Counted from the stretch's first letter, positions 1,767-25,627 are shown. The stretch: 64,000 nt of DNA from Candidatus Bathyarchaeota archaeon (GCA_963807605.1 CAWECG010000004.1:64001-128000); one strand, 5' to 3'. Translations and numbers: made by a program. Notes: a model not told the origin generated them from the sequence alone.

Positions 1767-1889
1767 GGGCCCGTAGCTCAGTCTGGTCTAGCACCATAAT
1801 GCGCACAGAAAGAGCGACAGAAAAAGTCGAGGCTCATAAGAGGCTGAGTGACCTGTTGGCCATGGGTTCAAATCCCACCGGGCCCACCA
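1767..1889 (+). tRNA. tRNA with CAT anticodon, probably tRNA-Ile2, with three introns (D-loop ~1788-1810; 30/31: 1821-1831; 37/38: 1839-1850)
   Basis: GGGCCCG/CGGGCCC acceptor stem (Ile-type, not initiator AGCGGG), ACAGG/CCTGT anticodon stem, CT CAT AA loop, TTCAAAT T-loop, A-CCA end; BHB central helices CGAC/GTCG and CTCA/TGAG. Confidence 0.9.
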
Positions 1890-1920: not shown

Positions 1921-3189
1921 GTGGAAACAAAACAGAAGCTTGCGCCTTTTAAAAGGCGTCCTGACAGAGATGGTATGTCGAAGGCGAAGTACCTCTATCT
2001 GCTGGAGGATCCTCCGGTTAAGCGTTGGTACAAGAATGTTGCTCGGGGCTCCGAGATAACTGCTGATGTTTATCTGCGTAGGTTGGGGAGTTTCATTTTT
2101 TCTAGGGGTTTGTCGGCTGGTGAGCTTGTGGATAGGGATGAGGGTGCTGCTGATCTCTTGTTGGATGCTGTTACTGAGTTTGAGGAGCAGGGTTACTCTG
2201 GTGGGTATATTGCGAGTACTGTGAAGGCTGTCAGGTCTTGGATTCGCCATAACAGGGTGAAGCTTCCTGTCTACATCAAGATTGCTGGTTCAGACGATAC
2301 GCCTACGCTTGAGGATGAGCAGACGCCGACGCATGAGGAGTTGTCAAGATTCTTCAGGGCGTGCTGGCTTGATGCTAGGGCTGCTGGTGGATTGATGGCT
2401 TTCTCTGGTGTTAGGCCGCAGGCGATTGGAAACTACAGGGGAATTGACGGGCTAAGGATCGGTGACTTTCTTGAGGTTGAGATAGATAACGCCGACAAGA
2501 AGGTTGAGTTCAAGAGTGTTCCAGCTTTGGTTTGTGTTAGGAAGGTCTTGAGCAAGGCAGGTCACCAGTACCTGACGTTTCTATGTGAGGAGGGCTGCCG
2601 CTACTTGAAGGAGTACTGGGAGTACCGGATGCGGCATGGTGAGGTGTTGACTTCTGAATCGGCAGCAATCAAAGCTAGGAGGGTCTGTAAGAAGCATTTC
2701 ATTCGGGCCACAAATGTTGGCGACAAGATAAGGAATGGGATCAGAGCAGCTAACTTTCCGTGGAGGCCATACATTCTCAGGTGTTACTTCGATACGCAAC
2801 TGATGGTTGCTGAAAGCAACAAACTCGTTATCAGAGACTATCGGCAGTTCTGGATGGGTCACAGAGGCGATATTGAACGCAGATACACCACAAACAAGTG
2901 TCACCTACCTCCACCTGTAATTGAGGATATGAGGAACGCTTACAGGAGATCGCAGAGGTACCTCCAGACAGAACCATCCAGCGAATACGTGAACACCAAG
3001 ATAGAGTTCAGAAGACAGCTGCTGCAGGTGGCAGGCTACGCCGAGTCTGAAGTCGACGGAATCGATTTGGAGAAGCTCAGCGACGAAGAGGTCCACCTCA
3101 AGACTCGAGAGCGGTTCCTCAAGAACAACAACAGCAGCAACATCAAGCAGAGGGTTGTTCCACTGGACGAGGTGGAGAAGTATATTTAG
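1921..3189 (+). CDS. Tyrosine recombinase/integrase of the island (alternative start ATG 1975)
   Basis: SGVRPQ (R), SKAG (K), PYILR, WMGH and ERRY catalytic-type motifs; adjacent to the tRNA. Confidence 0.92.
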   Translation: METKQKLAPFKRRPDRDGMSKAKYLYLLEDPPVKRWYKNVARGSEITADVYLRRLGSFIFSRGLSAGELVDRDEGAADLLLDAVTEFEEQGYSGGYIASTVKAVRSWIRHNRVKLPVYIKIAGSDDTPTLEDEQTPTHEELSRFFRACWLDARAAGGLMAFSGVRPQAIGNYRGIDGLRIGDFLEVEIDNADKKVEFKSVPALVCVRKVLSKAGHQYLTFLCEEGCRYLKEYWEYRMRHGEVLTSESAAIKARRVCKKHFIRATNVGDKIRNGIRAANFPWRPYILRCYFDTQLMVAESNKLVIRDYRQFWMGHRGDIERRYTTNKCHLPPPVIEDMRNAYRRSQRYLQTEPSSEYVNTKIEFRRQLLQVAGYAESEVDGIDLEKLSDEEVHLKTRERFLKNNNSSNIKQRVVPLDEVEKYI

Positions 3190-3865: not shown

Positions 3866-4470
3866 TTCTCTGCGTTTCCTATTCGTGACGATGACGACTG
3901 CAACAGCCGCGACCACTCCGAAGACGACCAAATATGGTGTGAGAAGTGTGAGTTTGTTGACGGGTTCCACGACGCCGCCGACCGGTCTTGCAGGCAGTAC
4001 AGTAAGCGTGGCTGGCCCACCGGGGTCAGTAATTGTGCCACTGGCTGATGCGGTGAAGGTTAACGTGATAATGGTTCGCATGGAATCAAGCGATGCTGAT
4101 GGAAACTGAGTCCACGCACCAGACTGAAACTTCCAATACGAGAAGGAACCAGCGGGCAACGGAGCAGGCAACGTGAGGGTTACTGTAACCGTCGCCCCCG
4201 GTGCGAGGCCTGAGATTGTGAAGGAGAATAAACCGTCAGGAAACGTTAACCCCGCTGGCGGAGCGGTTGAGACACTCGACAATGCTGAAGCGGTTAGATT
4301 TGTGAATCCTCCAGCAGTACTCGGACTCATAGTGTACGTCACCGTCCCAGTGCCCGTGGCGCTGGCCACCTGAACCGAAGTAGGCGCAAACGCATACACC
4401 CTACCATCATTTGAGCCTACGTACACGAGACCGCCCGAAACAGCAGGAGAAGAAGCGACAGGGCCACCGC
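3797..4470 (-). pseudogene. 5'-truncated surface protein: PQQ-like repeat, choice-of-anchor U domain, PVGG C-terminal anchor
   Basis: VASSPAVSGGLVYVGSNDGRVYAF; FPDGLFSFTISGLAPGATVTVTL...DPGGP; PVGG..PVNKL + TM + RKRR; cut off by the repeat starting at 4478. Confidence 0.75.
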
Positions 4471-4477
4471 GCGCGCG

Positions 4478-5426: not shown

Positions 5427-5429
5427 AAG

Positions 5430-5618
5430 GCTCCCAACAGTACCTCCGACATGATCGCCAGAAGAAAGGAAGGCGGAGCCGAAGGTGGACGGGTGAAACG
5501 ATACATCGAGTTCGAATACAAGTGCAGCCACATACCGTCTTCGATATGTCGTTGTCAAGAACCCATGACTCTGCAGATGCCTGGCCAACGCATTGATCAC
5601 GGTCTTACCTCTTGGTAG
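5430..5618 (+). pseudogene. Degenerate PD-(D/E)XK nuclease fragment
   Basis: SDMIARRK...RYIEFEYK resembles a D..ExK nuclease core; truncated by the CPBP repeat. Confidence 0.35.
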
Positions 5619-10381: not shown

Positions 10382-10469
10382 TTACCTCACATTTGTTGTC
10401 GCGTTTGAGTTGAATACGTTGTTCTTGAATGTTACCTTGCATTCATCAGATGATGTTGCTACCTAGAAA

Positions 10470-10489
10470 TGGTGTGGTGGTGCTCACCA
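10470..10489 (+). repeat. Intergenic motif copy (20-bp exact repeat of 15575-15594)
   Basis: TGGTGTGGTGGTGCTCACCA. Confidence 0.85.
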
Positions 10490-10947
10490 AGGGACACGAC
10501 GACGACACACACAGAATCTAATTGTTTGATTTTGGGTGTCCTCACTAGCGCCTATGTGAAGGCTCCTCTTCCACCCTTGTTCCTGGATGAATATATTTGG
10601 CATGCGCCTATTCGCCCACAGATGGGGCATTATGGCTTCGCATCCAGGCTATCCTCAATCGCGCTAACGTCCACCTTAAGGGACAGTGCTTTCACGAGGA
10701 GGTTTCTCTAGGCCTGACAATAATACAATTATTCATTTATCAATAATTGTCTTTCTATCGCAGTCTAGAATCGTTGAGTAGTGTGACTCCTCATTCACAT
10801 CCAAACCATCAGAAAGGGCGCTCATACAATGGCATGAGCGCCTCCTCTGCAAAAAAACTTCCCATACCATCGCGCTAGATTGAATAACGCGAGCGGTTCA
10901 AGGTAATCATTATATCTAAGCTAGTTAAGGAACAGAATGTGGTAAAT

Positions 10948-11115
10948 ATGCTAAAACATCCAGGACATGAAAAACATCTCTGCAAAATGGTAGTCGGCGA
11001 TATGGAAGACATCGCAAACATCAAACCGCTTGTAAATAATCCGAAGTACATCTGCAGTGGATGTGGAAGAGTGGCCAACAAAGCAGAAAATCTCTGCGCC
11101 CCCACTAGTCTTTAA
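10948..11115 (+). CDS. Small His/Cys-rich metal-binding protein, 55 aa (below ORF-track cutoff)
   Basis: [12 protein letters not shown]...[24 protein letters not shown]. Confidence 0.75.
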
Positions 11116-11326
11116 AAAACTACGTCGAAAACAAGATCGTGATCAACTCTTCTTTTTTCAAGCGCCCGCTATACGCTCAACAGTTATATTCACAAAGAAT
11201 TCAGAAAAGGGTCTAGTGCTTGCGCTTAGCACGCTACCTTAGCTATTGCGCTAAACACAATCCCGAAGGCATTCGAGATATGATTTAATAGAAGCAACGA
11301 CTGATTTAGATTCTGGTCGATATTGA

Positions 11327-11641
11327 ATGCCGATAGATCCTGAGTTCATGACCAAGGTCAAGAAGCACAGCCAACATAACGGACATGACGTTTGGGGCGA
11401 AGTGAAACCCCCTGAAAAATTGGGAATCCACGGAACCAACGTGGCTGTAGACCACGACCTATGCGACGGTGACGCCACGTGTGCGCAGGTCTGCCCAGTC
11501 AACGTATTCGAAATGATCGATAGCCCTGGTCACCCAACCTCAAACAAGAAATCAGATCCTGTAAGGGAGTCAGAATGCATATACTGTATGGCCTGCGAGA
11601 TACAATGCCCTCCCAAAGCAATCAAAATAACGCAAAAATAG
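11327..11641 (+). CDS. zfx: Zinc-containing dicluster ferredoxin (Sulfolobus/Thermoplasma type)
   Basis: N-terminal H..H...LGIHG extension; CxxDxxCxxxCP and CxxCxxCxxxCP. Confidence 0.9.
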   Translation: MPIDPEFMTKVKKHSQHNGHDVWGEVKPPEKLGIHGTNVAVDHDLCDGDATCAQVCPVNVFEMIDSPGHPTSNKKSDPVRESECIYCMACEIQCPPKAIKITQK

Positions 11642-11699
11642 GAAACCTCAAAGTATTATGCGCTATGTTGGCGCTATTCTTATGCGATGATATATGGTC

Positions 11700-12143
11700 A
11701 TGAAATGACAAGCCATTGCTGCCATCATTGTAGTGTTGGCCATTATTGGTGTCGGGTCCATATACATGGTTCAACAACAGAAGCCTTTACCAACATCATT
11801 TCCAACACCGAATGCAGCACCCACATTAACACCAACTCCGACTCCCACGTCAACACCAACTCCTACTCTATCCCCTACGCCCACCCCAACACCGACCCCC
11901 ACACAATCAGCTGCTGAAGAAGGCCGCATCCGTGACATTGTGAAGGCCTACTATGCCGCATTCAGCCAACATTCAGAAGGAGCCGTAGCAGGATTCTTTA
12001 CGATAGATGGACAGAAGCTGCTCAACAGTGGAAAAGATGGTTCGTTCATAGACCGTGACGCAATAAGGACAGGATTGGCAGGGGGCTTCGGAAATGGCAG
12101 AGACGTAACCATCAAGGAGTTAAACATCACTAAACTACCCTGA
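11700..12143 (+). pseudogene. Membrane-anchored Pro/Thr-linker, SnoaL/NTF2-like protein; nonsense codon at codon 3 and truncated by IS200
   Basis: ATG AAA TGA CAA GCC..., TM helix, (TP)n linker, IRDIVKAYYAAF; ends at the IS hairpin. Confidence 0.6.
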
Positions 12144-12338
12144 GCTAAAGCTCAGGGGGTTCTATGCTGCTTAGGCTAGGTATTCGCTGAGGGATTTCTG
12201 TTTGAATTGTAGGTAGACGTCGTGGTCCACGGCCTTCCAGTGTTTCCTCTGACTGTGTTCAAGGTAGTACCTGATGACTTCATTCGTGGTGACGCCGACC
12301 GAGCGGTAGAAGTAGCCCGCTGTCCAGAAGGCGTCACC
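12138..12338 (-). mobile_element. tnpA: IS200/IS605 tnpA remnant with terminal hairpin
   Basis: FWTAGYFYRSVGVTTNEVIRYYLEHSQ (Y1 transposase C-terminus); hairpin CCCTGAGCT-AA-AGCTCAGGG at 12138-12157. Confidence 0.85.
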
Positions 12339-12659
12339 CTAAAGCTTCGCCCTGACCCTGCTCCGGCATTTCTGGCGGATCCGCCTTGAGCTGACGCCTT
12401 TCAGGAGGCGTGCCAGCTCCGAGACGGCCAGATTCTTGCATGCGCCAAGTAAGATGTGGACATGGTCCGGACCGAACTCTATGGCGTGAAGCGCAAAACC
12501 GTATCGGGCCGCGGTCTCGCGGAAGCTCTCCTCGCAGACAAAGCATTCAACATGATTAAATCATATGCTAAGTGGCACTTGGATCGTCTTCGTCGGTAGC
12601 GTAGCAGTTTGCATTGTCGTTTACGCTGATCTAAAAGCTCGATTCTACGAGCGCTAAGA

Positions 12660-12929
12660 ATGAACACCAACGAAGAACCCAGATATGATGAAAAGGTGCA
12701 GTTTGCCGAGTTGGTTGGCAAGAGCTTTGTGGTGCTCAACTATGAAGTGTTCCCATCCAAATTCGAGGGCTGTGAGGAGTTCGCGGTCATTCTGATTAGG
12801 CAAAACGGTAGCGAGGCTATCACGACCACCAGCTCAAGGGTGATACTTGACCAGCTTGGAAAGATGAAGGATAAACTGCCGGTAAAGGTGAAGTTTCTGA
12901 GAAAAAATAGATATTTTACATTTAGCTAG
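12660..12929 (+). CDS. Hypothetical protein, possible virus/plasmid OB-fold SSB-like
   Basis: 89 aa, beta-rich, TTSSRVILDQL...LPVKV...RYFTFS. Confidence 0.55.
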   Translation: MNTNEEPRYDEKVQFAELVGKSFVVLNYEVFPSKFEGCEEFAVILIRQNGSEAITTTSSRVILDQLGKMKDKLPVKVKFLRKNRYFTFS

Positions 12930-13027
12930 TCTTTTTTCTACAATACTCGTTTTGTCAATCTAGCTTAGGTCCGACGGACATTATTTCAGGCGCGCTTGTT
13001 GCCTACGGATGTGGATTCAAACAAGCG

Positions 13028-13390
13028 TTAATCTAAAATCTTTTTCCTCGCAATCATATCCCTGTTTCTGCCGAATATCCAATAGCTGTAACCGCCATGC
13101 TCAAGCTTTCCACCAGCACTCTGGAGCTTCATGAAAAGCCCCATTGCTTCTTGCATGCTCGCCCACTCCCCTGTTCCCCGCTTCCAAGGCTTCCAGTCAA
13201 TAGCTTGAATATCCAATTCGACTTTCGGCTCTGATACAGCCTGAACGTTCATCTTGATTTGCTTTGCAGCCTCCACAGGCTTATCGAGCGATTGTTCTGG
13301 CGTTGAAGTTATCGTAATTCTAAGCTTCTCGCCGCACTTTGGGCACCTAACGACTGCTTCACTCAAGGATAGTCTCCCCATAGAAGACAT
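13028..13390 (-). CDS. Hypothetical protein with CPKCG motif and Trp/Gly-rich C-terminal domain
   Basis: RCPKCG; IDWKPWK..GEW..GGYSYW. Confidence 0.6.
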   Translation of the reverse strand: MSSMGRLSLSEAVVRCPKCGEKLRITITSTPEQSLDKPVEAAKQIKMNVQAVSEPKVELDIQAIDWKPWKRGTGEWASMQEAMGLFMKLQSAGGKLEHGGYSYWIFGRNRDMIARKKILD

Positions 13391-13603
13391 AATATCATGA
13401 GCAAAGGCTTTTGAATTAACCTCAGCACTACCAGTGACTCACCATTCTTGCAACGCCTTCAACGCAACCTTCTCATCTTTCAGCTCAATCTGCAAACTTT
13501 GATTACCAAGTGGCCTGATTCGCATCGAGAGTTGAGATGGTTCTTCATGGGAATTAGGCAATAAAGTGATAGCCTGTCTGACAATGTCTGACACCTTCAA
13601 GCC

Positions 13604-13876
13604 TTGGGATTGGCTCTTCAGCAACAAGTGGTTCTCCCAACTCAGTCGGCTCTAAATCATCTTGTTCTACAAAGGCTCAATATTATTGAAAAGAGAATAG
13701 GCAGAATCAGCGAAGAATCTAAAGCTGAAACCAAGCAAGCTCAAGTTGCAAAGCAAGAACTCATCAAATCTCTTGAAGCGCTTCTCGAAAACGTCGGGCG
13801 GAACGCATCGGAGCATGAAAAAGTCCTCAAGAGGCTTAAGGAGCTACCTTCACCAGACGAAAGACAATTTGCCTAG
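13604..13876 (+). CDS. Hypothetical coiled-coil protein, possibly a fragment
   Basis: 90-aa helical ORF in an AT-rich tract. Confidence 0.35.
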   Translation: MGLALQQQVVLPTQSALNHLVLQRLNIIEKRIGRISEESKAETKQAQVAKQELIKSLEALLENVGRNASEHEKVLKRLKELPSPDERQFA

Positions 13877-13890
13877 ATGATCTCAAATGG

Positions 13891-14604
13891 ATGATGATTT
13901 GGCTTTTCAGTTTCTTCCAAGATAGAAAGTTCCTACATGAATTGTTTCAACTTGTTGCTGAGGAATACAATAGAATTCTGCTTCAGTTATGCAGATTCTA
14001 CCAGAACCATAGGAGTGCATATAACAAGCTCAAACATGGTTTGATGTTTGCTCTCATTCAAATGGAGACTGGACAGGATGTCGTGAAGACGGTCATGACA
14101 TATGATAGATATGATAAGGAAGAATTCTACAGACTTGCAGACTGCTATCGCCCGCCAAAGAATCCCTCTCCACCTGGGATGGACTGGTTCAATCTAGTGT
14201 CCTATTTGCTGCAAGAGAGCCATGTTTTTGAGAAGTATAAGTACGTGAATTCTATGGTGTGGAAGCTGGCTAAAACACTCATCAGGAACTATTTTGATTT
14301 CGGCTCAAACTGTGGTCGTGACTATTTACCTGAGGGTGTGGACGACATTCTGCAATCGAGAAACATGCTGAGAGAGCTTGACAGGTACAAAGAAATAAAA
14401 AACAGACTCTATCCCAAAATGATTTCTCTCTCAATTACACAAGAAATCATACACAATCTTAGAGAAGAAGCATACAGGAAAACTACAGAACATTGGAACG
14501 CCAATCAGATTTCGAATCATTGGTACCCTCCCGTAGAGGAAGATAAGGAAACGTCTTTGCCTCCTAATGAGCCGATTATATCAACGGACTACAATGTGAA
14601 ATAG
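13891..14604 (+). CDS. Putative HEPN-like protein, probably N-terminally truncated
   Basis: Helical, AYNKLKHG motif. Confidence 0.45.
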   Translation: MMIWLFSFFQDRKFLHELFQLVAEEYNRILLQLCRFYQNHRSAYNKLKHGLMFALIQMETGQDVVKTVMTYDRYDKEEFYRLADCYRPPKNPSPPGMDWFNLVSYLLQESHVFEKYKYVNSMVWKLAKTLIRNYFDFGSNCGRDYLPEGVDDILQSRNMLRELDRYKEIKNRLYPKMISLSITQEIIHNLREEAYRKTTEHWNANQISNHWYPPVEEDKETSLPPNEPIISTDYNVK

Positions 14605-14639
14605 CCAACAGACACAAGAGCTAACTTTTTGGGGGCGGT

Positions 14640-14650
14640 CTCACCAGCTA
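14640..14650 (-). repeat. Intergenic motif copy
   Basis: CTCACCAGCTA, the reverse complement of TAGCTGGTGAG. Confidence 0.8.
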
Positions 14651-14741
14651 GCGCACGCTAAAGGAGCTCCTAGGATTCCTATCCTGATGTAAACATGACC
14701 TTCTCACTACATGGTAATGGTACTCCAAGAGGAGATGCGGA

Positions 14742-15500
14742 TTGACCAGAAAGCTTGACCTTGCAAAAACAACCGATGAGAAATGGGACAGTCTGAATGA
14801 CAGCTATAATAGAATAGTCGACAGAATCAATGAAATATCATGCAATCATCACCTACAAACAGCCGCTTTCAGAACCACTGATGGAACTGCCATAAATCTG
14901 AATGAATTCAATGAAAAAATGCTTACCCTACACTACAAATTGAGATATGCCTGTGTCAGTTTGGAATACCTAAGAAATGTATATCGCCAGTTCTCAGATA
15001 CGCTGGACAAGGCCATGAAAGCTATGACCGAATCGATTTCTGAGGATTTCATTTTCCATACTGATGTTTTCTTCATTTTTGGGTACAGCGCATTTGACAT
15101 CGTAGCTGGAATACTTGATATGATGACACAAACTGGTCTTCAGAAGAAGGAAGTCAATTTCTATAACGTAATAGAGGCACTTGCGAGTTCAAATTACTCC
15201 GACACTCATCCAATTTTCAGGACACTGAAACAGGAAAATAAGACAGGATGGATTCGTGAATTTCGACGCTACAGAGTGTTCTTGGTTCACTACTCAACCA
15301 TGCGTCTTCAAAAAGAATTTAAATACACTGCAAGAGACCAAACAATTGAAATCAACTTTTTCCTCTTACCAGATGACCCAGAGAAGAGGCCTTACGAATA
15401 TAACTCCAAAAGAGAACTTGTCCCTTATTGCGAGAAAGTAATGGAAAAAGAACTTGACGCCATAAAGGAACTTTTTGACTTCACTAGAACACTGATTTAG
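14742..15500 (+). CDS. Putative HEPN-domain RNase (Cthe_2314-like)
   Basis: YSAFDIVA helix followed by R-x4-H (YRVFLVH). Confidence 0.6.
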   Translation: MTRKLDLAKTTDEKWDSLNDSYNRIVDRINEISCNHHLQTAAFRTTDGTAINLNEFNEKMLTLHYKLRYACVSLEYLRNVYRQFSDTLDKAMKAMTESISEDFIFHTDVFFIFGYSAFDIVAGILDMMTQTGLQKKEVNFYNVIEALASSNYSDTHPIFRTLKQENKTGWIREFRRYRVFLVHYSTMRLQKEFKYTARDQTIEINFFLLPDDPEKRPYEYNSKRELVPYCEKVMEKELDAIKELFDFTRTLI

Positions 15501-15523
15501 CAGCAATAGCCGGTCTTCTCGAC

Positions 15524-15556
15524 AGGGGAAGAGGGCTTTCTGGGGGGTCTTCCCCT
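15524..15556. terminator. Hairpin between convergent genes
   Basis: AGGGGAAGA...TCTTCCCCT 9-bp stem. Confidence 0.4.
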
Positions 15557-15574
15557 AATGGGGATAGTCAGTCT

Positions 15575-15594
15575 TGGTGTGGTGGTGCTCACCA
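15575..15594 (+). repeat. Intergenic motif copy (exact repeat of 10470-10489)
   Basis: TGGTGTGGTGGTGCTCACCA. Confidence 0.85.
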
Positions 15595-15654
15595 TCTACA
15601 GTACGCACAAAGAGTATTTCGAATGGATGAATTGCGATTCTACTGCCGCTCGAT

Positions 15655-16332
15655 TCAATTGGAACTTTGTTTGAAGTATTTTCTATAATTACTTTCAAGG
15701 TCACGAAGAGCGTCGTTCTTCAGCCACCCTCTTAGTCTTCTTCTCACGTCCTGCAAGTTCGCTCCTTTCTTGCTAACAACGGAATTGCACCATTCATCAC
15801 CAGTCCTTACCTTTGAATATGGAAACCTTGTGAGGTAAAATCTCCCTTTGCTTGCCAGAGGCTTAACCGGTATGGGAGGCGGCCCTACCGTTACGATTCG
15901 GATTCGGCAGTTGCGCTTTGCTTTCCTATTCCGCTTTGCTTTACTGTTCCAGGCTACAAATTGCTCTAACCCTAAGTCCATAGTGGAATACATGACGAGA
16001 TTCTTTGTTGGCAGCGTCACGTTTTCAAATCGGGCTCTGATTATCTGTACATTCTGCAAAGCTTTCCGCTCTACGTTTTTCTTAGCTCTCCGGAAACGAA
16101 TTGGGTGGGACTCTATGCCGATGGCTGACTTGCAACGTCGTGCAGCCCAGATGCAGACCCATCCGTCGCCGCATCCCAAATCGCAGAAAACGTCTCTCCT
16201 TGTCAACTTCGCAAGTTCGAAGACTCGAATCGCTTCATCATGTGACGTAGCGGTGGGTGAACCTCTCCAATCGCGCATCAAGTTCACTTTGCTACGCATT
16301 TTCACCATGCTACACACACCCTGAAACGACAA
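15655..16332 (-). CDS. Class I SAM-dependent methyltransferase, DOT1/aKMT/FAM173-like
   Basis: ELAKLTRRDVFCDLGCGDG, AIGIE. Confidence 0.75.
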   Translation of the reverse strand: MSFQGVCSMVKMRSKVNLMRDWRGSPTATSHDEAIRVFELAKLTRRDVFCDLGCGDGWVCIWAARRCKSAIGIESHPIRFRRAKKNVERKALQNVQIIRARFENVTLPTKNLVMYSTMDLGLEQFVAWNSKAKRNRKAKRNCRIRIVTVGPPPIPVKPLASKGRFYLTRFPYSKVRTGDEWCNSVVSKKGANLQDVRRRLRGWLKNDALRDLESNYRKYFKQSSN

Positions 16333-16574
16333 TGGTTACTTACCTAGACCTCCTTTGCACGTTTCTAGGCTTCTTTCTCCCCCTTTTCGTTGTTGCTCCT
16401 TTTTACAAATCTTCCTTCTTCTCATGTCAAACACCTCAAGAAGTAAATCTCGAAAAATAGTCAATTTTTTGCCATTACATTCACTAATAACAGCAATTCG
16501 GTCAAATAGAAGACCAATGCTAACTCATAATTCTAAAAAATCAACTAAATACTAGATTTACTGGAGGACTAACC

Positions 16575-16826
16575 TTGCCCAGAAGAAAAACGTCTGACAT
16601 AATAGCTCACGTTTTGAGTTCTGCTGAGAGTCTAAAGAATAATATTGCTGCCGTACCAGTTGAGATTCAAGACAGAATTAGAGACTTGGCTCTAGTTATA
16701 GTCAACAAACCTGTAAAGAGGCGGGGTCGCCCACCCGGAAGGAAGAGGGGTAGACCTCCTGGAAGAAAGAAAAGGGGCAGACCAAGGAAGAGGGCAAAAG
16801 CAGTAGAGACGCCAACACAAGCCTAA
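16575..16826 (+). CDS. Small basic AT-hook protein, copy 1
   Basis: GGAGG ribosome-binding site + TTG; helical N-terminus then three RGRP motifs; paralog at 21430. Confidence 0.85.
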   Translation: MPRRKTSDIIAHVLSSAESLKNNIAAVPVEIQDRIRDLALVIVNKPVKRRGRPPGRKRGRPPGRKKRGRPRKRAKAVETPTQA

Positions 16827-16998
16827 TCGCGAAACATATTCTTTTTTGTTTCTGCAGCTTCCAGAGGATCATCTGTTGAAGAAGGTATTGATGGTGAGGA
16901 TGATAGCCTATCCACTGCTGACTTAGTGTAATGTCAGGGTTTTGTTCTCAATTCCTTCTCCAGCATGTCGTCTTCGAGTATCTTGCTTCGCATCAATT

Positions 16999-17806
16999 TC
17001 AGCGATTGATACGTGTCACGCTTCTGAGAAGCAGGGAAGTGTCCACGCTCCTCCCGTACAGGGTTAATGCGCCTCTATCTTTCAAGACATCTCGGAGGGT
17101 ATCCGTTACGAGGTCCGTGAGGCCGAACTCCACTGCAAGAGCGCGGATCTGCGCGTAGTCCATCGCGTCCTTCATTATGCTTCTCCTTTCTTTGGGGTCA
17201 AGCAACGCAATGATGTCAGAGCCATCCTTGGCAACCTTGCCTCTCAGCCACGCTAGCCTGGCAGCATTCATAGTGGCGCCTTTGGTTCTGATATCGTACT
17301 GCCTGTCACGCCTGGCCTTTACCTTGAACAGTGCTAGAAGTGCCTTGCTCGGAACGTAGCAGGCGCAGTCTCTCGCTATGCTGATCTCCCTCTTGCAACC
17401 ATCCCTCTCACAGAGGGAATAGGGAAGGGCCTTCGAGCCACCCTCGTGGAATTGACTCGCACCGCTGCGTTCGTAGGTGCACGCATCGATTTCCATGTCT
17501 CCTATCTTTCTCCCTCCCTTCGAGTAGATCGGTTTGCTGGCTGTTATCTCTGTCCCGAGCGCATCCTGTTGCAGGATTTCGTACCCGTGAGACTTTTCGT
17601 ATCCCTCGATTATCTCGTCGAACGCGTCCCTGTGGCTCGAATCCAACCACGTCGATGTCGACGGAACCGTAATAGGGGTTGTAGAAGTATACTGCCCAGC
17701 CCCCTACTATGACAGGTGCTCCGAAATGTCGGAAATAGCGAACGAAACTGACGAGTTCCCGGTAAGATGTCCTTACCGGCGCTGGCCCTTTCGGAGTTCC
17801 GCTCAT
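16999..17806 (-). CDS. AbiEii-like nucleotidyltransferase toxin (+1 frameshift near 17641)
   Basis: PVIVGGWAV...GSVDIDVV joined to a downstream frame with LLALFKVKA...KDGSDI. Confidence 0.75.
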
Positions 17807-18426
17807 CTTCCTTTTTTTATCTCCTCGTATAGCTTCATCGCGCCATCCCTGCCCGCTCCTCCCAGGCAGAACAAATCTATAACGACCTGAACAGGTTCGA
17901 CCAGAACAAATTCCTTGATTCGTCTCGCGTTCTGCAGGATTAGCTCCGAGTCCGGGCTGAGAACCTGTATCGTTACGTCGCCTCTTCCCCTGGGAATCCG
18001 ATTCGCAAGTTCGAGTGGCTTCTGGGAGTAAACGTGCACCGACGGATACGTGATGTAGTACTCGACGTACTTGGCGAGCGCGGAAAAGGCAGTCAGCGCA
18101 TACCCGCCCGTATGCACTACAGCGTTCCTGACCATTCTTTCGATTTTCGATATCTCCGACTCCTCGGTTCTGACCTCCGAAACAACTAGCTTGGAGAGCG
18201 GCCGCTCCGTCGAGAGAACCTCCAGCAACCTGAGTGAATCACTAAGCTCCAAGTGTCCCTTCCCTCTCTGCGCGACTATCCCGGGCGCCTCAATCTCGCT
18301 GATGACGTGATTTACTAGATTCCTGGAGACGCCTGCCTTCCTTGAGATTTCAATCTGGGAAGTCTGAGGGTGTGTCAGCAGGTATGCTACAACCTTGTAG
18401 GTCTGCGGGGAGGTTAGTCTGACCAA
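17803..18426 (-). CDS. AbiEi-like antitoxin (wHTH + C-terminal domain)
   Basis: SQIEISRKAGVSRNLVNHVI HTH; YALTAFSAL, VHVY, VQVVIDLF; overlaps the toxin start. Confidence 0.75.
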   Translation of the reverse strand: MVRLTSPQTYKVVAYLLTHPQTSQIEISRKAGVSRNLVNHVISEIEAPGIVAQRGKGHLELSDSLRLLEVLSTERPLSKLVVSEVRTEESEISKIERMVRNAVVHTGGYALTAFSALAKYVEYYITYPSVHVYSQKPLELANRIPRGRGDVTIQVLSPDSELILQNARRIKEFVLVEPVQVVIDLFCLGGAGRDGAMKLYEEIKKGR

Positions 18427-18581
18427 TTCTCTTCCTGTCGTCCTTCGCGCTGGGTCATATTTAAAGAAATCCCATATTCATGGGATTATCCCATAAACAT
18501 GGGATAACCAACGGCGCGAAGACGCGTTGCGACCCCACTTCGGCACTACTGCGGTTAAGAGCACCGCACCACCTTACTCTC

Positions 18582-18812
18582 ATGAAATCAAAAACTACGC
18601 TCCAGAACAATGGGACTGTAGGCATACGCGCGTTCAAGAATGGGCTCAAGAAGAAGCTCCCTCCCGACAGCCCCGTCCTGATGGACCTCCTCCATGAGCC
18701 AGACTCGATGCCCCTCACCAGGGCTGATGTCCTGATTCCGCACTACCTGCAGAGGCTGGAGAGGGAACTCGAGAAGTACGAGTCGTCAGGACCCGTGGTT
18801 CTGCGTTCATGA
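18582..18812 (+). CDS. Small protein resembling 3195-3359
   Basis: IRAFKNGLKKKLPPDSPVLMDLLHEPDSM. Confidence 0.5.
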   Translation: MKSKTTLQNNGTVGIRAFKNGLKKKLPPDSPVLMDLLHEPDSMPLTRADVLIPHYLQRLERELEKYESSGPVVLRS

Positions 18813-18903
18813 TCTAGCTAGCCCGTCTTTATCCCAATCACGACCTTGTCATTAGGCAGGTCTCGCTTGTAGTCCCAGCCTTGCTCTATCTACAGTTTCA
18901 AAT

Positions 18904-19330
18904 GTGTATGCTCAACTACCAGTATTGCCATCAGGTACAACGGTGGCCAGCAACATCAATGACTACCTTATTGCTGTGACATTGGCTGTCTTTCTTGCTG
19001 CTAGCACAGATCTCCTTCAGAATTACTTCGTACTTCATGAGAGCTGGAAGACGTTTGCATTGGCCAGCTTCTTTACCGGATTGATCTTGCTCTTGATGTT
19101 CATAATGTGTTTTTTTTGGGCGCAGTATTGCAGAAATGCAGACGCTGAAAGATGTCGCAATGTTGCCCTCCCCACAGGTCGTTGACCAAGGACAAGTTGC
19201 GACGACTTTGGCTAATTTCAAAAAGGAGCTAGAAGATGCGATCGCCCTAAGTAAAGAAGATGCTGACAAAAATCTTCGACTACTGGAAAAGATCAAGAAA
19301 GCTCAGGTCAAGATTTCTGACAAACCTTAG
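18904..19330 (+). CDS. Hypothetical two-TM membrane protein, frameshift in a T8 run (~19110)
   Basis: ORFs 18904-19185 and 19136-19330 join if one T is removed. Confidence 0.5.
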
Positions 19331-19401
19331 CGCCCGCTAACCAAACATATATCGAATTTATTGTGAATACATAAGCAGTATATGGTTATGTGTCCGCCCT
19401 C

Positions 19402-19468
19402 GCTGGTGAAAACATCCAGATTTGAACCGTTAGGAATTGATTTTGTGTGTCACACCTTAGCTGGTGAG
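19402..19468 (+). repeat. Long intergenic motif copy plus a second core
   Basis: GCTGGTGAAAACATCCAGATTTGAACCGTTAG...TTGATTTTGTGTGT and TAGCTGGTGAG at 19458. Confidence 0.8.
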
Positions 19469-19553
19469 CAAACTCAGATTTCTATAGCCTATTCGCGGCT
19501 TCAATGCTTCAACAGTCGTCTCACAGCACAAGTGAAAAAAATCTTGACAATTG

Positions 19554-20003
19554 CTATAGTGAAGCAGCTATATCGGCTGCGATTTGTCTAAACGTTTCTT
19601 CCGCACCTTCTTCGAGCCGTGCCTCTTTCGAATTGAATACGGCTGAGGCATGTGGTCGGACAACATTCATTCCTAGTTTCTCTAGCCTTGCCTCTATCTT
19701 CTTTCCAGCACTGCCAGCGAATTTGCTCTTCAGTTTGGTGTCAAACGCGAATGCTTTCTTACCATGGAGATCTGTACCTTCCAGTTCTTTAAGGAGGATC
19801 TTCATAGGTTTGGACAGACCAAACGCGTGCGTCGGTCCACCTACCGCCAGTAAATCATACTCATTCAATCTACCGATCTGGACCTCTTTGACGTTAATGC
19901 AGTCGGCTTCGACCCCTTTCTTCGTCATTCCTTCTGCTAACGCCTTCGCTATCTTTTCTGTATTTCCGAATTTTGTATCGTAGATCACCATCGCTTTCGT
20001 CAT
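19554..20003 (-). CDS. Flavodoxin-like protein
   Basis: YDTKFGNTEKIA, VGGPTH, AFDT. Confidence 0.92.
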   Translation of the reverse strand: MTKAMVIYDTKFGNTEKIAKALAEGMTKKGVEADCINVKEVQIGRLNEYDLLAVGGPTHAFGLSKPMKILLKELEGTDLHGKKAFAFDTKLKSKFAGSAGKKIEARLEKLGMNVVRPHASAVFNSKEARLEEGAEETFRQIAADIAASL

Positions 20004-20086
20004 CTATGATTACCGTTGAAGAGTTCTGGCGGTGACACTATTTATGATTTGAATTTGGTCTGAAGCTGCGCTATGGGTTTTGATCT

Positions 20087-20151
20087 TAGCTGGTGGTGGC
20101 ACCCTTGGCGAGAGCGTCGTAATTTGAACTGTCAGATTTGATTCGTGTGTG
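20087..20151 (+). repeat. Long intergenic motif copy
   Basis: TAGCTGGTGG...TGGCGAGAGCGTCGTAATTTGAACTGTCAGATTTGATTCGTGTGT; 21/30 identical to 19404-19433. Confidence 0.7.
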
Positions 20152-20337
20152 AAGAGATGAAAAGTCTAGTTCTAGTGACATGTTGATTCTCTGTGGTTGG
20201 TAAGCCTTAAACCAACCCGTCACTCCACGGTACGAAAATCATAGTATGTAACTCACTCTAAATGTTTACTTGATATACAGTCACGCTTGCATCTTTGATA
20301 AGAAAGCTTTTGTGAAACAGAATATCAATAACACTAC

Positions 20338-21129
20338 ATGATTAAAATTGAGTCATACGAGGATGTAAGACAGATCACTGCTAGCGTTACGCTATTTGGT
20401 AAAGAAGTCTTTTCTACTAATTCTTATGTTGTAGCCAATCTTCTAATTGATACCGGTCCCGCTAAACTGTCTGAGAAATTTCTGAAAGTCTTGGAACCTT
20501 TTACCGTTAAAAAAGTAGTGAATACTCATGCCCATTCAGATCATATTGGATCAAATTATGCATTTCCCTTTGTTTTTGCACATCCTGAAGGCTTTGAAAG
20601 GTTGAAGAATCCTAAACTCGAAATGATAATAGAGAGATTCCTACTCGGTCTGCCTAAACCATGCAACCCTAGAGAGGTTCCGGCAAAGATTGCTGCGGAT
20701 AACTTCACATTGAACGTGTTACATACACCAGGGCATTCACCAGATCATATATCCTTGTATGAACCGGATCGGAGATGGGTTTTCACTGGAGATTTGTTGC
20801 TATGGAGTCGTACCCGAGAAGTCTTTAAGGACGTAAAGATATATGATGCAATCGAGTCTCTGCGCCGTTTATCTAAGTTGAAAATTGAAATACTATTTCC
20901 CGGACATGGGCCTCCTTTCAAAAATCCGAACGAAGCCTTGAGAATGCAGGTGGAAACTCTAGAAACATTTGAAACACAGATAAGAAAGGCTTATGAAAGG
21001 GGATTATATGCTGAGGAAATTCGGAATGAAATGTTTGGGAAAGAAAGAATGTTTACATATCTTTGTGGAGGGAAATTCTCTGCTTTAAATTTAGTGAATA
21101 GTTTCCTTAAGAATGGGGAAGGATGTTAG
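20338..21129 (+). CDS. Metallo-beta-lactamase fold hydrolase
   Basis: THAHSDHIG, TPGHSPDH, FTGD, PGHG. Confidence 0.92.
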   Translation: MIKIESYEDVRQITASVTLFGKEVFSTNSYVVANLLIDTGPAKLSEKFLKVLEPFTVKKVVNTHAHSDHIGSNYAFPFVFAHPEGFERLKNPKLEMIIERFLLGLPKPCNPREVPAKIAADNFTLNVLHTPGHSPDHISLYEPDRRWVFTGDLLLWSRTREVFKDVKIYDAIESLRRLSKLKIEILFPGHGPPFKNPNEALRMQVETLETFETQIRKAYERGLYAEEIRNEMFGKERMFTYLCGGKFSALNLVNSFLKNGEGC

Positions 21130-21303
21130 ACCCTTATTGATTTGGGGTTCCGTATGAGAACTATGTAAGATTCATTGTATGATGAGAACTAAGGTCTGGA
21201 AAGGAAATCTCACTTCAATCTAGAAATGTTCATGTGGATGTCCACGTCGAAGAACCCGTATCCACATGGACACCCCAAACAGCCAGTTATTCATATCCCC
21301 CTA

Positions 21304-21358
21304 TAGCTGGTGAGTGTGTGGGATAGCTGGTGAGAGCATTCAAGATTTGAACTATCAA
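21304..21358 (+). repeat. Tandem motif cores plus long copy
   Basis: TAGCTGGTGAG at 21304 and 21324; the second continues AGCATTCAAGATTTGAACTATCA. Confidence 0.82.
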
Positions 21359-21429
21359 TATATCATACGCATATTGAAAGGAGTGGTATTAAATACGGTA
21401 CGAATGAACAAGATAATAGTGCTATCAAT

Positions 21430-21675
21430 ATGCCTAGACGGAAGAGTTCAAGCATAATATCTGAAGTGCTAACCGCCGCTGAAAGCTTAAGGAACGGTCT
21501 AAACGCTGTCCCAGCTGAGGTTCAAGACAGAATTAGAGACTTGGCTCTAGTTATACTCAACAAACCTGTAAAGAGGCGGGGTCGCCCACCAGGAAAGCGA
21601 AGGGGAAGACCGAGAAAGAAGAGGGGAAGACCAAGGAAGAGGGCAAAAGCAGTAGAGTCGCCGCCACAAGCCTAA
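21430..21675 (+). CDS. Small basic AT-hook protein, copy 2
   Basis: Paralog of 16575-16826 with three RGRP motifs. Confidence 0.85.
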   Translation: MPRRKSSSIISEVLTAAESLRNGLNAVPAEVQDRIRDLALVILNKPVKRRGRPPGKRRGRPRKKRGRPRKRAKAVESPPQA

Positions 21676-22223
21676 TCGCGAAATATATTCCTTTTTGTTT
21701 CTGCAGCGATCTTTTCAACTATCGCAATTTCCGCCATTTCTCTCTCGTCCAACGGTCGTTTTTCTACCACAGCAATATTCTTGATACCTTCAACATAACC
21801 TTCTATGTAACCATCCATATTGTCCATGAACTCCTTCTCGGTCTTTGGAATCCTTCTTCTACCTCTAGTCGGAACAGTTCACTTGACCGCAATAATATAT
21901 GGCACAATTTCACTAGTCAATACGTCTCTTGCATCCCCATAGTTGCTTTTTTGATTGCAGCACTATCCTCAATTTCATTCTACGTAGTCTGTCCAGTGAC
22001 AACAATCAGACTCATTCATAGGAAGGCAATCCAGCTCCACCTCCCCACATGCGAAGACCTTCCCTCTTCACCTTCCCAATCAAACCTCTAGCGTCCCTCG
22101 GCCCCCTCTCGAAGAAAAGCTGCCCAGCTGAGAGAGTAGAAACGATCCTTGACCGTTCCAGGATCATTGAAAAAGGAACTGTGGATTGAACACGCAGAAC
22201 TCGCAGTAGACTAGAAAGCTGCA

Positions 22224-23172
22224 CTCCTAACTAACTGGAATTCAACGCGGCTGGTGATTGTAGCGTGCCCAAGCAACTCCACGATCGCTTCACGTCTTCT
22301 TGCTGAGTGCAAATGCAAAGAATGCCAAGTAGGCCAATCCTATTGCCAGATAGCCGTACGCTTCTGGCCATCGAACAACTGTTCCATGCTTGACGTATAC
22401 GTCCAGGAGGGCACCCATCGGTATGAATATCGGCCACTGATTCAAGACACTCCTCGTCGTTCTGAAGACAGCCGCGTAGACTATCCCTACAACAAACAGA
22501 GTCATGATATTCTCGGGTGTCGCCCATCCTGGATAGCCGATGTGATAGAGTGAGTACATCGCAGATGCGATCAATATGCCAGGTATGATTCCGAAGGCCC
22601 TGTTAAACCTCAGTTGAAGGAATCCTCGGAAGAAGACGGCTTCAAAGAATCCGCTCACAAGGACAAGCATCAACAATGGCGGGAGTATACCCAGATCCCC
22701 CAGCCTTGATACACCTGCGCCGATAAGCGGGGGCATCACGAACACTATTGTTGCCACCAGTCCAATAAGGATGCTAAGCTTCCATCTCTGCTTGGTTATT
22801 CCAATCTCTCGAAAGGCTTCTCTCCTCAAGAATCTGATGTAACCTACCGGGATGAGAACCCCAGCAAAGAATAGGAGACCAACATCGTAGAATATGATGG
22901 CATCAATCATTGACGCTCGGGCGAAAGCAAGATAATTGAAAAGGACGACGAGAGCCCACGCCCCAATCGCGACTAGCAAACTCTTGTCAGGCGAATATCT
23001 GACCGCCAGAACCTGCTTGCATTTCATGCTTCGTTGGTCGATTTGAGGCTGGTGAAAAGGTTTACGATAGGATCGATCCTTCGTGAACTCTAAAAAGCAA
23101 AGCGTCGTCGATTGTTCATAGGTGGCTCGTCGAGAAGTCACAACGGTCCAGACTCGCCTTGCAAAAGACGGA
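22224..23172. repeat. 949-bp direct repeat copy 2 (CPBP module)
   Basis: Colinear with 4478-5426. Confidence 0.95.
22290..23027 (-). CDS. CPBP family intramembrane metalloprotease, copy 2
   Basis: Near-identical to 4544-5281. Confidence 0.85.
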   Translation of the reverse strand: MKCKQVLAVRYSPDKSLLVAIGAWALVVLFNYLAFARASMIDAIIFYDVGLLFFAGVLIPVGYIRFLRREAFREIGITKQRWKLSILIGLVATIVFVMPPLIGAGVSRLGDLGILPPLLMLVLVSGFFEAVFFRGFLQLRFNRAFGIIPGILIASAMYSLYHIGYPGWATPENIMTLFVVGIVYAAVFRTTRSVLNQWPIFIPMGALLDVYVKHGTVVRWPEAYGYLAIGLAYLAFFAFALSKKT

Positions 23173-23218
23173 CAGACTTCCACGATCCCCACCAAAGAGC
23201 CAAATTACCTATATCCCC

Positions 23219-23228
23219 CTCACCAGCT
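23219..23228 (-). repeat. Intergenic motif copy
   Basis: CTCACCAGCT. Confidence 0.7.
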
Positions 23229-23369
23229 TGGGCGCACACACAACGATGTACGAATAAGGGCCTGGAGCGATGGATAAGGAATCTCCCAGCGGCCTCCCCA
23301 TCTGTCTCAAGTTGCGGTGAAATGTTATTAGCCACCCGTAAGAGTGGTGTTGGGGGTCGGTTTTCGGCA

Positions 23370-23950
23370 ATGTCCGAGAAGTCCAGAATTAGGACCTTCT
23401 CAGATTATGTGTTCGGACTTGTAGTGGTCTTCAGCAGCTTCTCACTGACTAACAGCGTCATTCAGGCGCCAGTCGATCTTGTCAGTAGTATAGCGTTGTT
23501 TACTTTGAGTTTTGCGATCTTGATCACAGTGTGGCTCATATATGACGGCCTGATGGCCAAACTTCGTGTGGAAACCAGCACGGCCCTGGCTCTAAACATC
23601 ATATTATTGTTTCTCGCGGTGTTGGAGCCTTTCCTGTTGAACATCGTTTTTTGAACCCTAGGGTCTCCGATTTCGCGTCTACTTGCTATGCCATTGATAT
23701 GGGTGGTCTGCTTGGAATATGTGCTCTGCTAGCTCATATGCTTGCAATAGACAGCCGCAACGCGCTTTCGGTGGAGGTGTCAAAGACTCTCAGGTCCGAG
23801 AGGAATCTGTTCGCGATTGTTGCTGCGATTTTCGTTGTGTCGACCGCGCCTTTGCTAGTGACCTTCACGTTTTTGGGTTGGACATTGCGAGCATGGCTAT
23901 GGGTGGCGATGTTGTTCGTGTACCCCATCAGAAGAGCGACTTCACGATAA
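23370..23950 (+). CDS. TMEM175-family potassium channel-like protein, frameshift in a T6 run (~23650)
   Basis: SRIRTFSDYVFG, SFAILITVW, LNIILLF..LEPF. Confidence 0.75.
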
Positions 23951-24084
23951 CTAGCGCGTGATAGCGCGCCCGAGGTTTGCGGTTGTTCAGGCCTCCTCGT
24001 GGCGTGACGGTCTCTGTTAAATGGTATCGGAATAACTAACAAGTGTTTTATACCTGTTACAAGGAGAGCTTGTTGGTAATTCTG

Positions 24085-25203
24085 ATGTCTATTACGGGTA
24101 AGCTTCCACTAACCCTACTATTGATGATGGTGATTGTCTCAGCAGGCTCCCTCATCCAGTTGCAGCCTGCCTCCGCAACCTTTCCAGGAGCTAACGGCAA
24201 GATAGTATTCTCAAGAATCATCGGAACCCTTCCAACTTTAACCACTCCAACTATTTTCGCTCCAACCCCTCCAACTATACCCTATCAACTTGAGATCTTC
24301 ACTGTGAACCCTGACGGCTCAGGCTTAACTCAGCTTACCTCGACCGGGCCAGGCATGGCTAATTCATACCCACGTTGGTCTGCGGACGGTACAAAAATAG
24401 TATTCTCAAGCTTCAGGACTGGCGTATCCGCGATCTGGGTGATGAATGCTAACGGATCAGGACAGAATCAAATAACCCATCCACCACCTTCTACACGTAA
24501 CTATGAACCGGCCTTTTCTCCAGACGGATCAAAGATTGTATTCACAAACGCATCATCAACTACTACTAACATTTGGGTGACTAATGTTGACGGCTCAAAC
24601 CAGAAGCAACTGACTATAGGATCTGAGACAGACACTTTTCCTGTCTGGTCTCCTGACGGGTCGAAGATAGCATTTATGAGATATCCGGTATCCGGCAACG
24701 AACACATCTTTGTAATGAATCCTGACGGCTCAGGCCAGACCGACATAAGCAAGGATCCTACTGCACAAGACTACTACCCTGAATGGTCCCCCAACGGAGG
24801 GATGATTGCATTCAGTAGCTTCCCCAGTCTTGCGATATGGGTGATGAATGCTGACGGATCAGGCAGAAAGCAACTGAGCACTCCTCCTAATGGAGTGTCA
24901 GATTTCTATCCCGCTTGGTCTCCTGACGGAACAAAGATCGCATTCGCCAGAGGCGAACTCGCTAGCATAATTGTGATGAATGCAGACGGCTCAAACCCGA
25001 CTGATATAACCCAATCACAGCCAAACTCAACCACAGACACTACTCCAAATTGGCAGCCTCTGTTCCTGCCTCCGCCCGCAAGACCTGTAGGCGGTGTAAC
25101 CCTACCAACCAACAAGCTTGAGATCCTAACACCCTCCCTAACCTTAGCAGGACTAGCCGCTGCAGTATCCGCAGTTGTAGTAGTTAAGAGAAGAAGAGAC
25201 TAA
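24085..25203 (+). CDS. Secreted TolB-like (PD40) beta-propeller with PVGG C-terminal membrane anchor
   Basis: Signal peptide ending PASA/TFPG; repeated P.WSPDG.KI.F; PVGG..PTNKL + TM + KRRRD. Confidence 0.9.
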   Translation: MSITGKLPLTLLLMMVIVSAGSLIQLQPASATFPGANGKIVFSRIIGTLPTLTTPTIFAPTPPTIPYQLEIFTVNPDGSGLTQLTSTGPGMANSYPRWSADGTKIVFSSFRTGVSAIWVMNANGSGQNQITHPPPSTRNYEPAFSPDGSKIVFTNASSTTTNIWVTNVDGSNQKQLTIGSETDTFPVWSPDGSKIAFMRYPVSGNEHIFVMNPDGSGQTDISKDPTAQDYYPEWSPNGGMIAFSSFPSLAIWVMNADGSGRKQLSTPPNGVSDFYPAWSPDGTKIAFARGELASIIVMNADGSNPTDITQSQPNSTTDTTPNWQPLFLPPPARPVGGVTLPTNKLEILTPSLTLAGLAAAVSAVVVVKRRRD

Positions 25204-25457
25204 CCAAAACATCCTTTATCTTTTTTCGTAACTTCCTAGGATACTTTCTTTTTTGAGGCTGTCCTTCTTGCCTATCCTCCTGTGTCGTTATGCCCCTACA
25301 TATGTAGAGACAGAATAGGTTCGGTTCAACTATAATCGAACCAGATCTCACCACGACGTGCCAGTAACAAAGAATTTAAGATGGAAAATCGTATTATTTA
25401 GAAACGTTGAGTCTGGAATGACTTTTTCCATGAAAAAAGGGCAGGATTTGAACCCTA

Positions 25458-25486
25458 ATGGGTTCAAATACCACCGGGTCCACCAC
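25458..25486 (+). repeat. attR (duplicated tRNA-Ile2 3' end)
   Basis: ATGGGTTCAAATACCACCGGGTCCACCAC, 27/29 identical to 1862-1890. Confidence 0.88.
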
Positions 25487-25627
25487 GTAACCCGCACACA
25501 GATCATCGCAGCTAGCGAGCGCTAGAAGCGACTGTCATTCATTCTTTTTGTCATGTGAGCACGAGAAAAACATCATTTATATCTTGGGATTTCATCGCTC
25601 TTATCCCAATATGTCGAGGTAAGATCT

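Follow-up and report, generated by a model that had tools for sequence, protein, structure and literature searches.

Casposons are transposons that are integrated by a homologue of Cas1, the casposase, and they are held to be the ancestors of the adaptation machinery of CRISPR. To our knowledge, descriptions exist for few casposons, and those known so far are large and encode PolB. Here, we analysed a 64,000-nt stretch (the window) from the genome of a Candidatus Bathyarchaeota archaeon (GCA_963807605.1, CAWECG010000004.1:64001-128000), in which copies of an 11-nt motif recur between small accessory genes. The repeated motif probably represents relics of casposon landing sites, which would mark out a decayed array of small gene-carrying units inside a tRNA island. 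An earlier note on this DNA had read the same copies as an integron-like cassette array served by the tyrosine recombinase of the island.

The closest described systems are the family 2 casposons of Methanosarcina mazei (MetMaz-C1 and MetMaz1FA1A3-C2; casposase 6OPM). Their target-site duplication (TSD) is 14 bp long, with conserved first four bases, CGCA, that are the last 4 bp of tRNA-Leu, and efficient targeting requires the TSD together with ~30 bp of upstream tRNA sequence (PMC6977970). Tandem casposons with one common TSD occur in Methanosarcina, as do solo terminal inverted repeats beside target motifs (PMC4779613). In M. mazei, an engineered mini-casposon was mobilised in vivo; excision leaves a single TSD, and a circular intermediate has been proposed (PMC10359463).

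Spread and anatomy of the motif

The window belongs to a 2.65-Mb archaeal genome (G000) on five contigs, in an assembly that is 94% complete. The exact 11-mer has 69 copies in this genome, compared with one for a backwards control, and words containing the motif are among the most over-represented in a census of genomic 12-mers. The motif is thus not specific to the island, contrary to the earlier interpretation. Allowing one mismatch, including a second core variant and requiring a recognisable arm, we counted 145 such armed cores in 50 clusters across the genome. Exact cores were also detected in relatives, with 45, 27, 9, and 5 copies in genomes of a second genus of the family, 12 in a sister genome, and 6 in a third genus; their number is near zero in most other relatives. 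Among other strongly over-represented words, the same census returned GC palindromes of the type AGCGCGCGCT, with 25-36 copies, and an overlapping 12-mer block (~25 copies each), spanning at least 40 nt, which resembles a CRISPR-type repeat.

Each site has a core of 14 nt, in which a conserved stretch precedes two variable bases and a G. Upstream of the core stands either a T-loop block or an end tip of the (TG)n, (CGT)n, or (GGT)n type; a ~95-nt G-rich arm (G-arm) can also form the tip with its inverted end. The complementary tip types stand downstream. All combinations of arms and tips occur, and they mix freely. The G-arm also abuts cores in two related genomes, G038 and G001. Our first guess, a repeat resembling repetitive extragenic palindromes or miniature inverted-repeat transposable elements, was dropped when the arms turned out to be the ends of Cas1 elements.

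The T-loop block lies at a fixed distance of 17 nt from the core in 44 of 47 copies, and the conserved leader covers ~25-30 nt upstream of the core, matching the ~30 bp of upstream tRNA sequence that is needed in M. mazei. The 5 nt between the conserved blocks are freely variable. Because only 1-3 of the 5 T-stem pairs form, the T-loop leader is best understood as a DNA recognition signal descended from a tRNA 3' end, rather than as a folded RNA or T-arm. The cores start with CTCA or CGCA, corresponding to the last three acceptor bases plus the discriminator, and are in the M. mazei register, in which the 14-bp duplication likewise begins with the tRNA acceptor end (CGCA). None of the genome tRNAs listed ends in the leader and core sequence, and on that ground we discarded an origin of the copies from a tRNA gene still resident in the genome. 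As regards a possible site-specific insertion at tRNA 3' ends, the leader is tRNA-like and the core keeps the expected register, and no listed tRNA gene contains the site. The copies had been described as mimics of the tRNA end that serves as the attachment (att) site of the island. Imitation of a tRNA 3' end was confirmed. The special likeness to the att site was not, since the common part comprises the T-loop and ACCA, which are present in most genome tRNAs checked; the resemblance is generic, and the motif is not a copy of the att site.

Elsewhere in the genome, 11 small units (0.7-9 kb) lie between cores of the same sense and end in inverted tips that match. Many units measure 0.7-2 kb and carry one gene and no Cas1.

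Cas1 elements bordered by the core

The sole full-length Cas1 of the genome (G000:C3:803495-804700; L012:9496-10704) comprises 402 amino acids (aa). By far its best solved relative is the M. mazei casposase 6OPM, with an alignment that spans 6OPM residues 21-407 of 431 and thus almost the entire protein (E 6e-72), compared with 4e-25 for the best CRISPR Cas1. It is encoded in an element of ~9.0 kb (L012:2435-11417) with an identical 14-mer at both borders, a variant that has three genome copies. Inverted (CGA)n tips lie just inside the borders, and a T-loop leader lies just outside one of them. In G038, whose casposase is 67% identical, we found a 9.3-kb element (L024:3220-12559, G038:C14) that ends in (CA)n/(TG)n tips and is flanked on each side by the same 14-mer. 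A second leader and core lie ~45 nt inside the left tip of this element, within the outer 14-mers, consistent with an element that carries a spare landing site. In both elements, the ~14-bp duplication has a boundary that is ambiguous by one base on each side, and the tips form terminal inverted repeats, whereas most units in the window show one tip.

Two further genomes offer a single visible end. In G013 (casposase 48% identical), a leader, core, and G-arm are followed by a full-length casposase gene ~1 kb inside, and in G040 (casposase 69% identical), the order is leader, core, (CA)n, and casposase gene. The core hence adjoins an element encoding Cas1 in each of four genomes, at both borders in two and at the one visible end in the others. 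The tips beside casposase genes fall into three classes, (CA)n, (CGA)n, and G-arm; no (CCA)n-tipped element bearing a casposase was seen among the Cas1 elements of the four genomes. One proposal of the earlier note, that the sites are targets for DNA insertion or recombination, was supported. That note had also stated that its reading would fall if the motif proved to be the end of a known insertion sequence or miniature inverted-repeat transposable element. The motif does belong to a known class of mobile element, as its target and not its end.

The G000 and G038 elements have a common module, in which an unknown open reading frame (ORF) of ~225-250 aa, Cas1, another unknown ORF of ~220-230 aa, and a P-loop ATPase-like gene follow one another. 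The last is divergent (275-283 aa, 31% identical between the genomes) and weakly matches TniB. Cargo of the Cas1 elements includes SIR2-like, ATPase_2, and DUF4365 genes.

To compare the candidate enzymes, we used the distances of armed cores from their genes. Within 5 kb of Cas1 or casposase genes or fragments, we counted 11 armed cores against 3.3 expected (~3-fold), and within 12 kb, 20 against 7.9. Around the 10 paralogues of the island integrase found in the genome, at least four of which adjoin tRNA genes, a 5-kb radius included 6 armed cores (4.5 expected) and a 25-kb radius 21 (17.6 expected). Since cores are not enriched near these paralogues and are ~3-fold enriched near casposase genes or fragments, the integrase is not supported as the enzyme acting on the sites, contrary to the earlier proposal, which had named enrichment at islands of this integrase family as support. 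Casposase-type hits were also obtained in six of the seven relatives whose genomes contain five or more exact cores.

The similarity to the M. mazei casposons extends to short inverted ends, tandem elements with one TSD, and solo ends beside targets. Several features set the present system apart. The Cas1 elements examined here carry no PolB, and the tips are of three simple-repeat kinds or a 95-nt arm. The landing site is free-standing, exists in ~145 copies, at least one of them inside an element, and was found in no tRNA gene recovered from this genome. Furthermore, many units are small, single-gene, and devoid of Cas1.

The window array and its host island

In the window, exact 11-mers are located at 19458, 21304, and 21324 (+) and, reversed, at 14640, and one-mismatch copies at 15588 and 23219. 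These six matches compare with 1.0 expected, and six or more were obtained in none of 100 shuffles. Longer copies running from T-loop to CCA lie on the minus strand at 19404, 20106, and 21328; those at 19404 and 20106 are identical at 21 of 30 positions. A 20-bp pair at 10470 and 15575 is exact. Every coordinate given in the earlier note holds. Plus-sense sites are found at 10483, 14640, 15588, and 23219, with a degenerate half-site at 25347 (Table 1). The minus strand, followed from 21352, shows in turn leader, core, CACACA, core, G-arm, metallo-beta-lactamase (MBL) gene, tip-linker-leader, core, (CCA) tip, flavodoxin gene, core, tip-linker-leader, and degenerate core.

Table 1. Sites, cargo genes, and borders of the tRNA island in the window (positions counted from the first base of the window)
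Feature	Position	Strand	Description
Intron-containing tRNA gene	1767..1889	+	Rfam RF00005, 38.7 bits; missed by ARAGORN; attachment site of the island
tRNA-adjacent integrase	1921..3189	+	Divergent tyrosine-recombinase family, 422 aa; assigned through homologues only
Site S1	10470..10514	+	(CCA)-type right tip; 14-bp B-type core 10483-10496; (CGA)/(CA)-type left tip
Site S2	14640..14653	+	14-bp core with exact 11-mer; degenerate tips on both sides
HEPN-like cargo gene	14742..15500	+	Between S2 and S3; PF18730, E 2.8e-4, under the curated cut-off (weak)
Site S3	15575..15601	+	(CCA)-type right tip, same as that of S1; one-mismatch core 15588-15601
Sites S4/S4'	19397..19468	-	Core S4 19455-19468; (CA) tip, linker, and T-loop leader 19411-19454; degenerate core S4' 19397-19410 (11/14 to consensus, hand count)
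Flavodoxin cargo gene	19554..20003	-	PF00258, E 6e-16
Site S5	20082..20150	-	(CA) tip, linker, and T-loop leader 20113-20150; B-type core 20099-20112; (CCA)-type tip 20082-20098
Metallo-beta-lactamase-fold hydrolase cargo gene	20338..21129	+	PF00753, E 4e-28
G-arm, ~95 nt	21209..21300	-	Putative orphan casposon end abutting core S6; ~10 genome copies, each core-adjacent
Sites S7/S6	21301..21352	-	T-loop leader 21335-21352; core S7 21321-21334; 6-nt CACACA; core S6 21301-21314
Site S8	23180..23245	+	G-arm remnant 23180-23218; one-mismatch core 23219-23232; (CA)-type tip
Degenerate half-site	25347..25358	+	Initial 7 core bases directly followed by a CGA tip; too short to score alone
Distal att	25458..25486	+	Direct repeat of the tRNA 3' end; 27/29 bases identical to 1862-1890

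The repeats had been said to separate single unrelated genes and to lie between genes throughout. Pfam searches agree with the first statement, in that a flavodoxin, an MBL-fold hydrolase, a weak HEPN match, TMEM175, and a PD40/TolB-like gene were found between sites. The second holds for ORFs of at least 100 aa with the exception of the core at 23219, which falls in the unmatched N-terminal extension of a mechanically called ORF whose TMEM175 match begins at residue 92.

The array is lodged in the segment 1890-25486 (23.6 kb), which is a conventional tRNA island made by a tyrosine recombinase, because a tRNA gene and an adjacent integrase-family gene are present and the distal border repeats the tRNA end with 27 of 29 bases identical. 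The tRNA end at 1866-1889 recurs at 25462-25485. The integrase itself gave no match in Pfam, PHROG, NCBIfam, or PDB; it has more than 1300 homologues, and among those with 52-57% identity, many contain PF00589 or bear the name site-specific integrase. In its tRNA gene, adjacent integrase, and 29-nt far-border repeat, the host island resembles archaeal tRNA-integrating tyrosine-recombinase elements. It differs from them in the motif copies, which are not att repeats and are not tied to the integrase family elsewhere in the genome. A second tRNA gene with a long insertion (1461-1563, minus strand) forms a divergent pair with the one at 1767-1886 (plus strand) and was likewise recovered by Rfam and not by ARAGORN.

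The island has a patchwork structure, with segments that share 80-98% identity with other loci. Its stretch 25358-25483 is 79% identical to one that lies ~12 kb from the integrase paralogue at C4:451595, and a duplicated segment (22221-23182, 96% identical) stops at the inner edge of the G-arm remnant of S8. A DNA search of related genomes with 10000-25600 yielded gene-level homologues and repeats and no orthologous array. Exact-protein look-ups of the MBL and flavodoxin genes returned one other contig only, with identical gene order and no polymorphism. A look-up of public sequencing runs for 14500-23500 returned none.

Several further repeats were noted in the island. The Rce1-like CAAX-protease genes at 4475-5436 and 22221-23182 have 96% DNA identity, and parts of them are 97% identical to C2:9842-10302. 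Positions 4389-4468 match a tandem array with a period of ~120 nt (C1:338735-339651), which adjoins an N-terminal casposase fragment with one stop codon (C1:340629-340964). The small ORFs at 16575-16826 and 21430-21675, called AT-hook genes in the earlier note, are paralogous, belong to no Pfam family, and have copies at C1:219122, C3:423034, C3:187320, and C3:1096234. The 3' end of the PD40/TolB-like gene, encoding its C-terminal membrane-anchor region, plus ~50 nt downstream (25084-25253) has dozens of copies with 75-90% identity in genomes of the family, often within 100-200 nt of cores or casposase remnants. A relationship between this repeated 3' end and the ORFs downstream of cas1 was rejected, as the sequences are not similar. 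A dispersed repeat of ~330 nt (10548-10880) starts with a GCGCC motif and has at least eight copies in the genome and others in related genomes. No core precedes any of these further copies, and we regard it as a separate repeat family rather than a core-linked one.

Origin and significance of the array

Under the casposon interpretation, the 11-mer would be the conserved part of a 14-bp target that is duplicated upon insertion of a family-2-type casposon, and the longer copies would represent this core with its upstream leader, descended from the 3' end of a tRNA. The (CA)n, (CGA)n, and (CCA)n tips and the 95-nt G-arm would be the end tips of different casposon subfamilies. Some elements appear to carry an internal leader and core, by which landing sites would spread along with the elements. 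New units could insert beside old ones, giving rise to arrays of core, small cargo unit, and core, one of which would have come to lie in a tRNA island integrated by an unrelated tyrosine recombinase. We infer that a casposase made the duplications and that the single-gene units of the window were mobilised in trans. The array now appears to be a fossil, an old and eroded stack of casposon-derived units and orphan ends, because the flanking cores differ, several units have no matched second tip, and the sole full-length casposase of the genome has Pro in place of a catalytic His.

A number of observations weigh against this interpretation. The window (C4:64001-128000) contains no casposase gene or fragment, the element-encoded casposase of the genome lying elsewhere. 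The Pro of the only full-length casposase (codon CCT, L012:10201-10203) occupies the position of the M. mazei catalytic His232. The His is kept in the proteins of G038, G013, and G040 and in a truncated G000 copy at C3:1057683, and the two catalytic Glu equivalents are retained in the full-length G000 protein; no canonical active casposase is visible in the 94%-complete assembly. PolB, a defining casposon gene, is absent from the G000 and G038 Cas1 elements. In the whole genome, PF00136 gave two hits only, far from the listed clusters of armed cores, and PF03175 gave none. The flanking cores of the window all differ from one another within their 14 nt, and a matched inverted tip is missing from most units. 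Tips match between adjacent cores in 11 of 20 cases genome-wide against 8.3 expected (P about 0.09), which is weak as proof of unit-by-unit insertion. The TSD length can be fixed only to 12-15 bp, the bases flanking the core being the same in nearly every context.

The differing cores, the units with one recognisable tip, and the non-significant tip matching also speak for an account that we consider unlikely, though not negligible, in which the cores and leaders are casposon pads and the units were not inserted singly by a casposase. The array would then be a mosaic produced by homologous or illegitimate recombination, deletion, and duplication between pads and other repeats. The patchwork composition of the island fits such a history, as does the presence of other junction repeats in the region, namely the GC palindromes and the 330-nt repeat. 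Moreover, ends of intragenomic duplications fall within 40 nt of a core ~3.5-fold more often than random positions, against a crude control, yet this concerns only 21 of 1442 ends (5.6 at random). Opposed to the mosaic are the small units elsewhere in the genome that keep matched inverted tips between same-sense cores, and the demonstrated mobilisation of a non-autonomous mini-casposon in M. mazei (PMC10359463).

It is very improbable that the copies are secondary att sites of the island tyrosine recombinase, used for integron-like capture or shuffling of modules. The armed copies of the window do all lie inside the integrase island, several other integrase islands contain cores too, and the copies resemble a tRNA 3' end, as the att sites of such integrases do. 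Set against this, ~85% of sites are more than 25 kb from any integrase paralogue, around which cores show no enrichment. The 29-nt att repeat of the integrase has just the generic T-loop and ACCA in common with the motif, and islands with a 90%-identical integrase in other samples contain no cores in their readable first 3-4 kb. The Cas1 elements, in addition, explain cores, arms, and leader without any integrase. A host signal, regulatory or structural in nature (a binding site for a transcription factor, a terminator, or an RNA element resembling a tRNA, for instance), would account for intergenic copies conserved across at least three genera, and (TG)n-core-(CA)n arrangements could form hairpins. 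Such a function is hardly credible for sites that have no fixed partner gene or orientation, do not maintain the T-stem, combine freely with different arms, and occur in 50 patches rather than at promoters. Their number also varies from 0 to 69 among related genomes, broadly tracking casposase-type genes.

With casposon landing sites as the preferred interpretation, the array can be compared with other systems that string inserts between repeats. As in integrons, single unrelated genes are split by repeated recombination sites, and the cassette logic would be similar because excision in M. mazei leaves one target copy and a circular intermediate has been proposed (PMC10359463). The resemblance stops there, and the integron-like array of the earlier note was not substantiated. 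No IntI-type integrase is adjacent; a distance of 7.3 kb separates the integrase-family gene (1921-3189) from the first site, and the homologues of this gene are generic members of PF00589. The sites are asymmetric, with a bipartite leader and core, and no palindromic pair of the attC kind was seen in the window sites, for which no single-strand folding was run. The orientation of cassettes is mixed (flavodoxin minus, MBL plus), and some junctions have two cores. In addition, the sites are genome-wide and accompany Cas1, not a tyrosine recombinase. CRISPR arrays are similar in their Cas1-family enzyme, in the leader that adjoins the duplicated site, and in the use of the duplicated target as a repeat between inserts. 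They differ in that the inserts here are kilobase-sized gene units with their own tips, the repeat is 14 bp, leaders recur within arrays, and Cas2 or effector genes are not linked.

These comparisons bring to mind a broader scenario, which we put forward tentatively and with more doubt than confidence. A clade of PolB-less Bathyarchaeia casposons might carry its own landing pad, made up of leader and 14-bp core, with the casposase acting as a cassette integrase that inserts, excises, and stacks small single-gene units with simple-repeat tips at multiplying pads. Such a system would stand naturally between transposons, integrons, and CRISPR arrays, with a leader, a duplicated site in the role of the repeat, and a gene-sized insert in that of the spacer.

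The biology of the window array is probably historical, because the array is decayed and the sole full-length casposase lacks the catalytic His. For annotation, a practical consequence is that the motif points to junctions of mobile elements in these genomes and is not to be taken for the att site of an integrase. A target site appears to have escaped from a tRNA gene, multiplied to ~145 copies, and come to separate small cargo units without Cas1. If a casposase does move these units, they would show a route from a Cas1 transposon to an array-building system, and archaea would gain an integron-like way to collect accessory genes.

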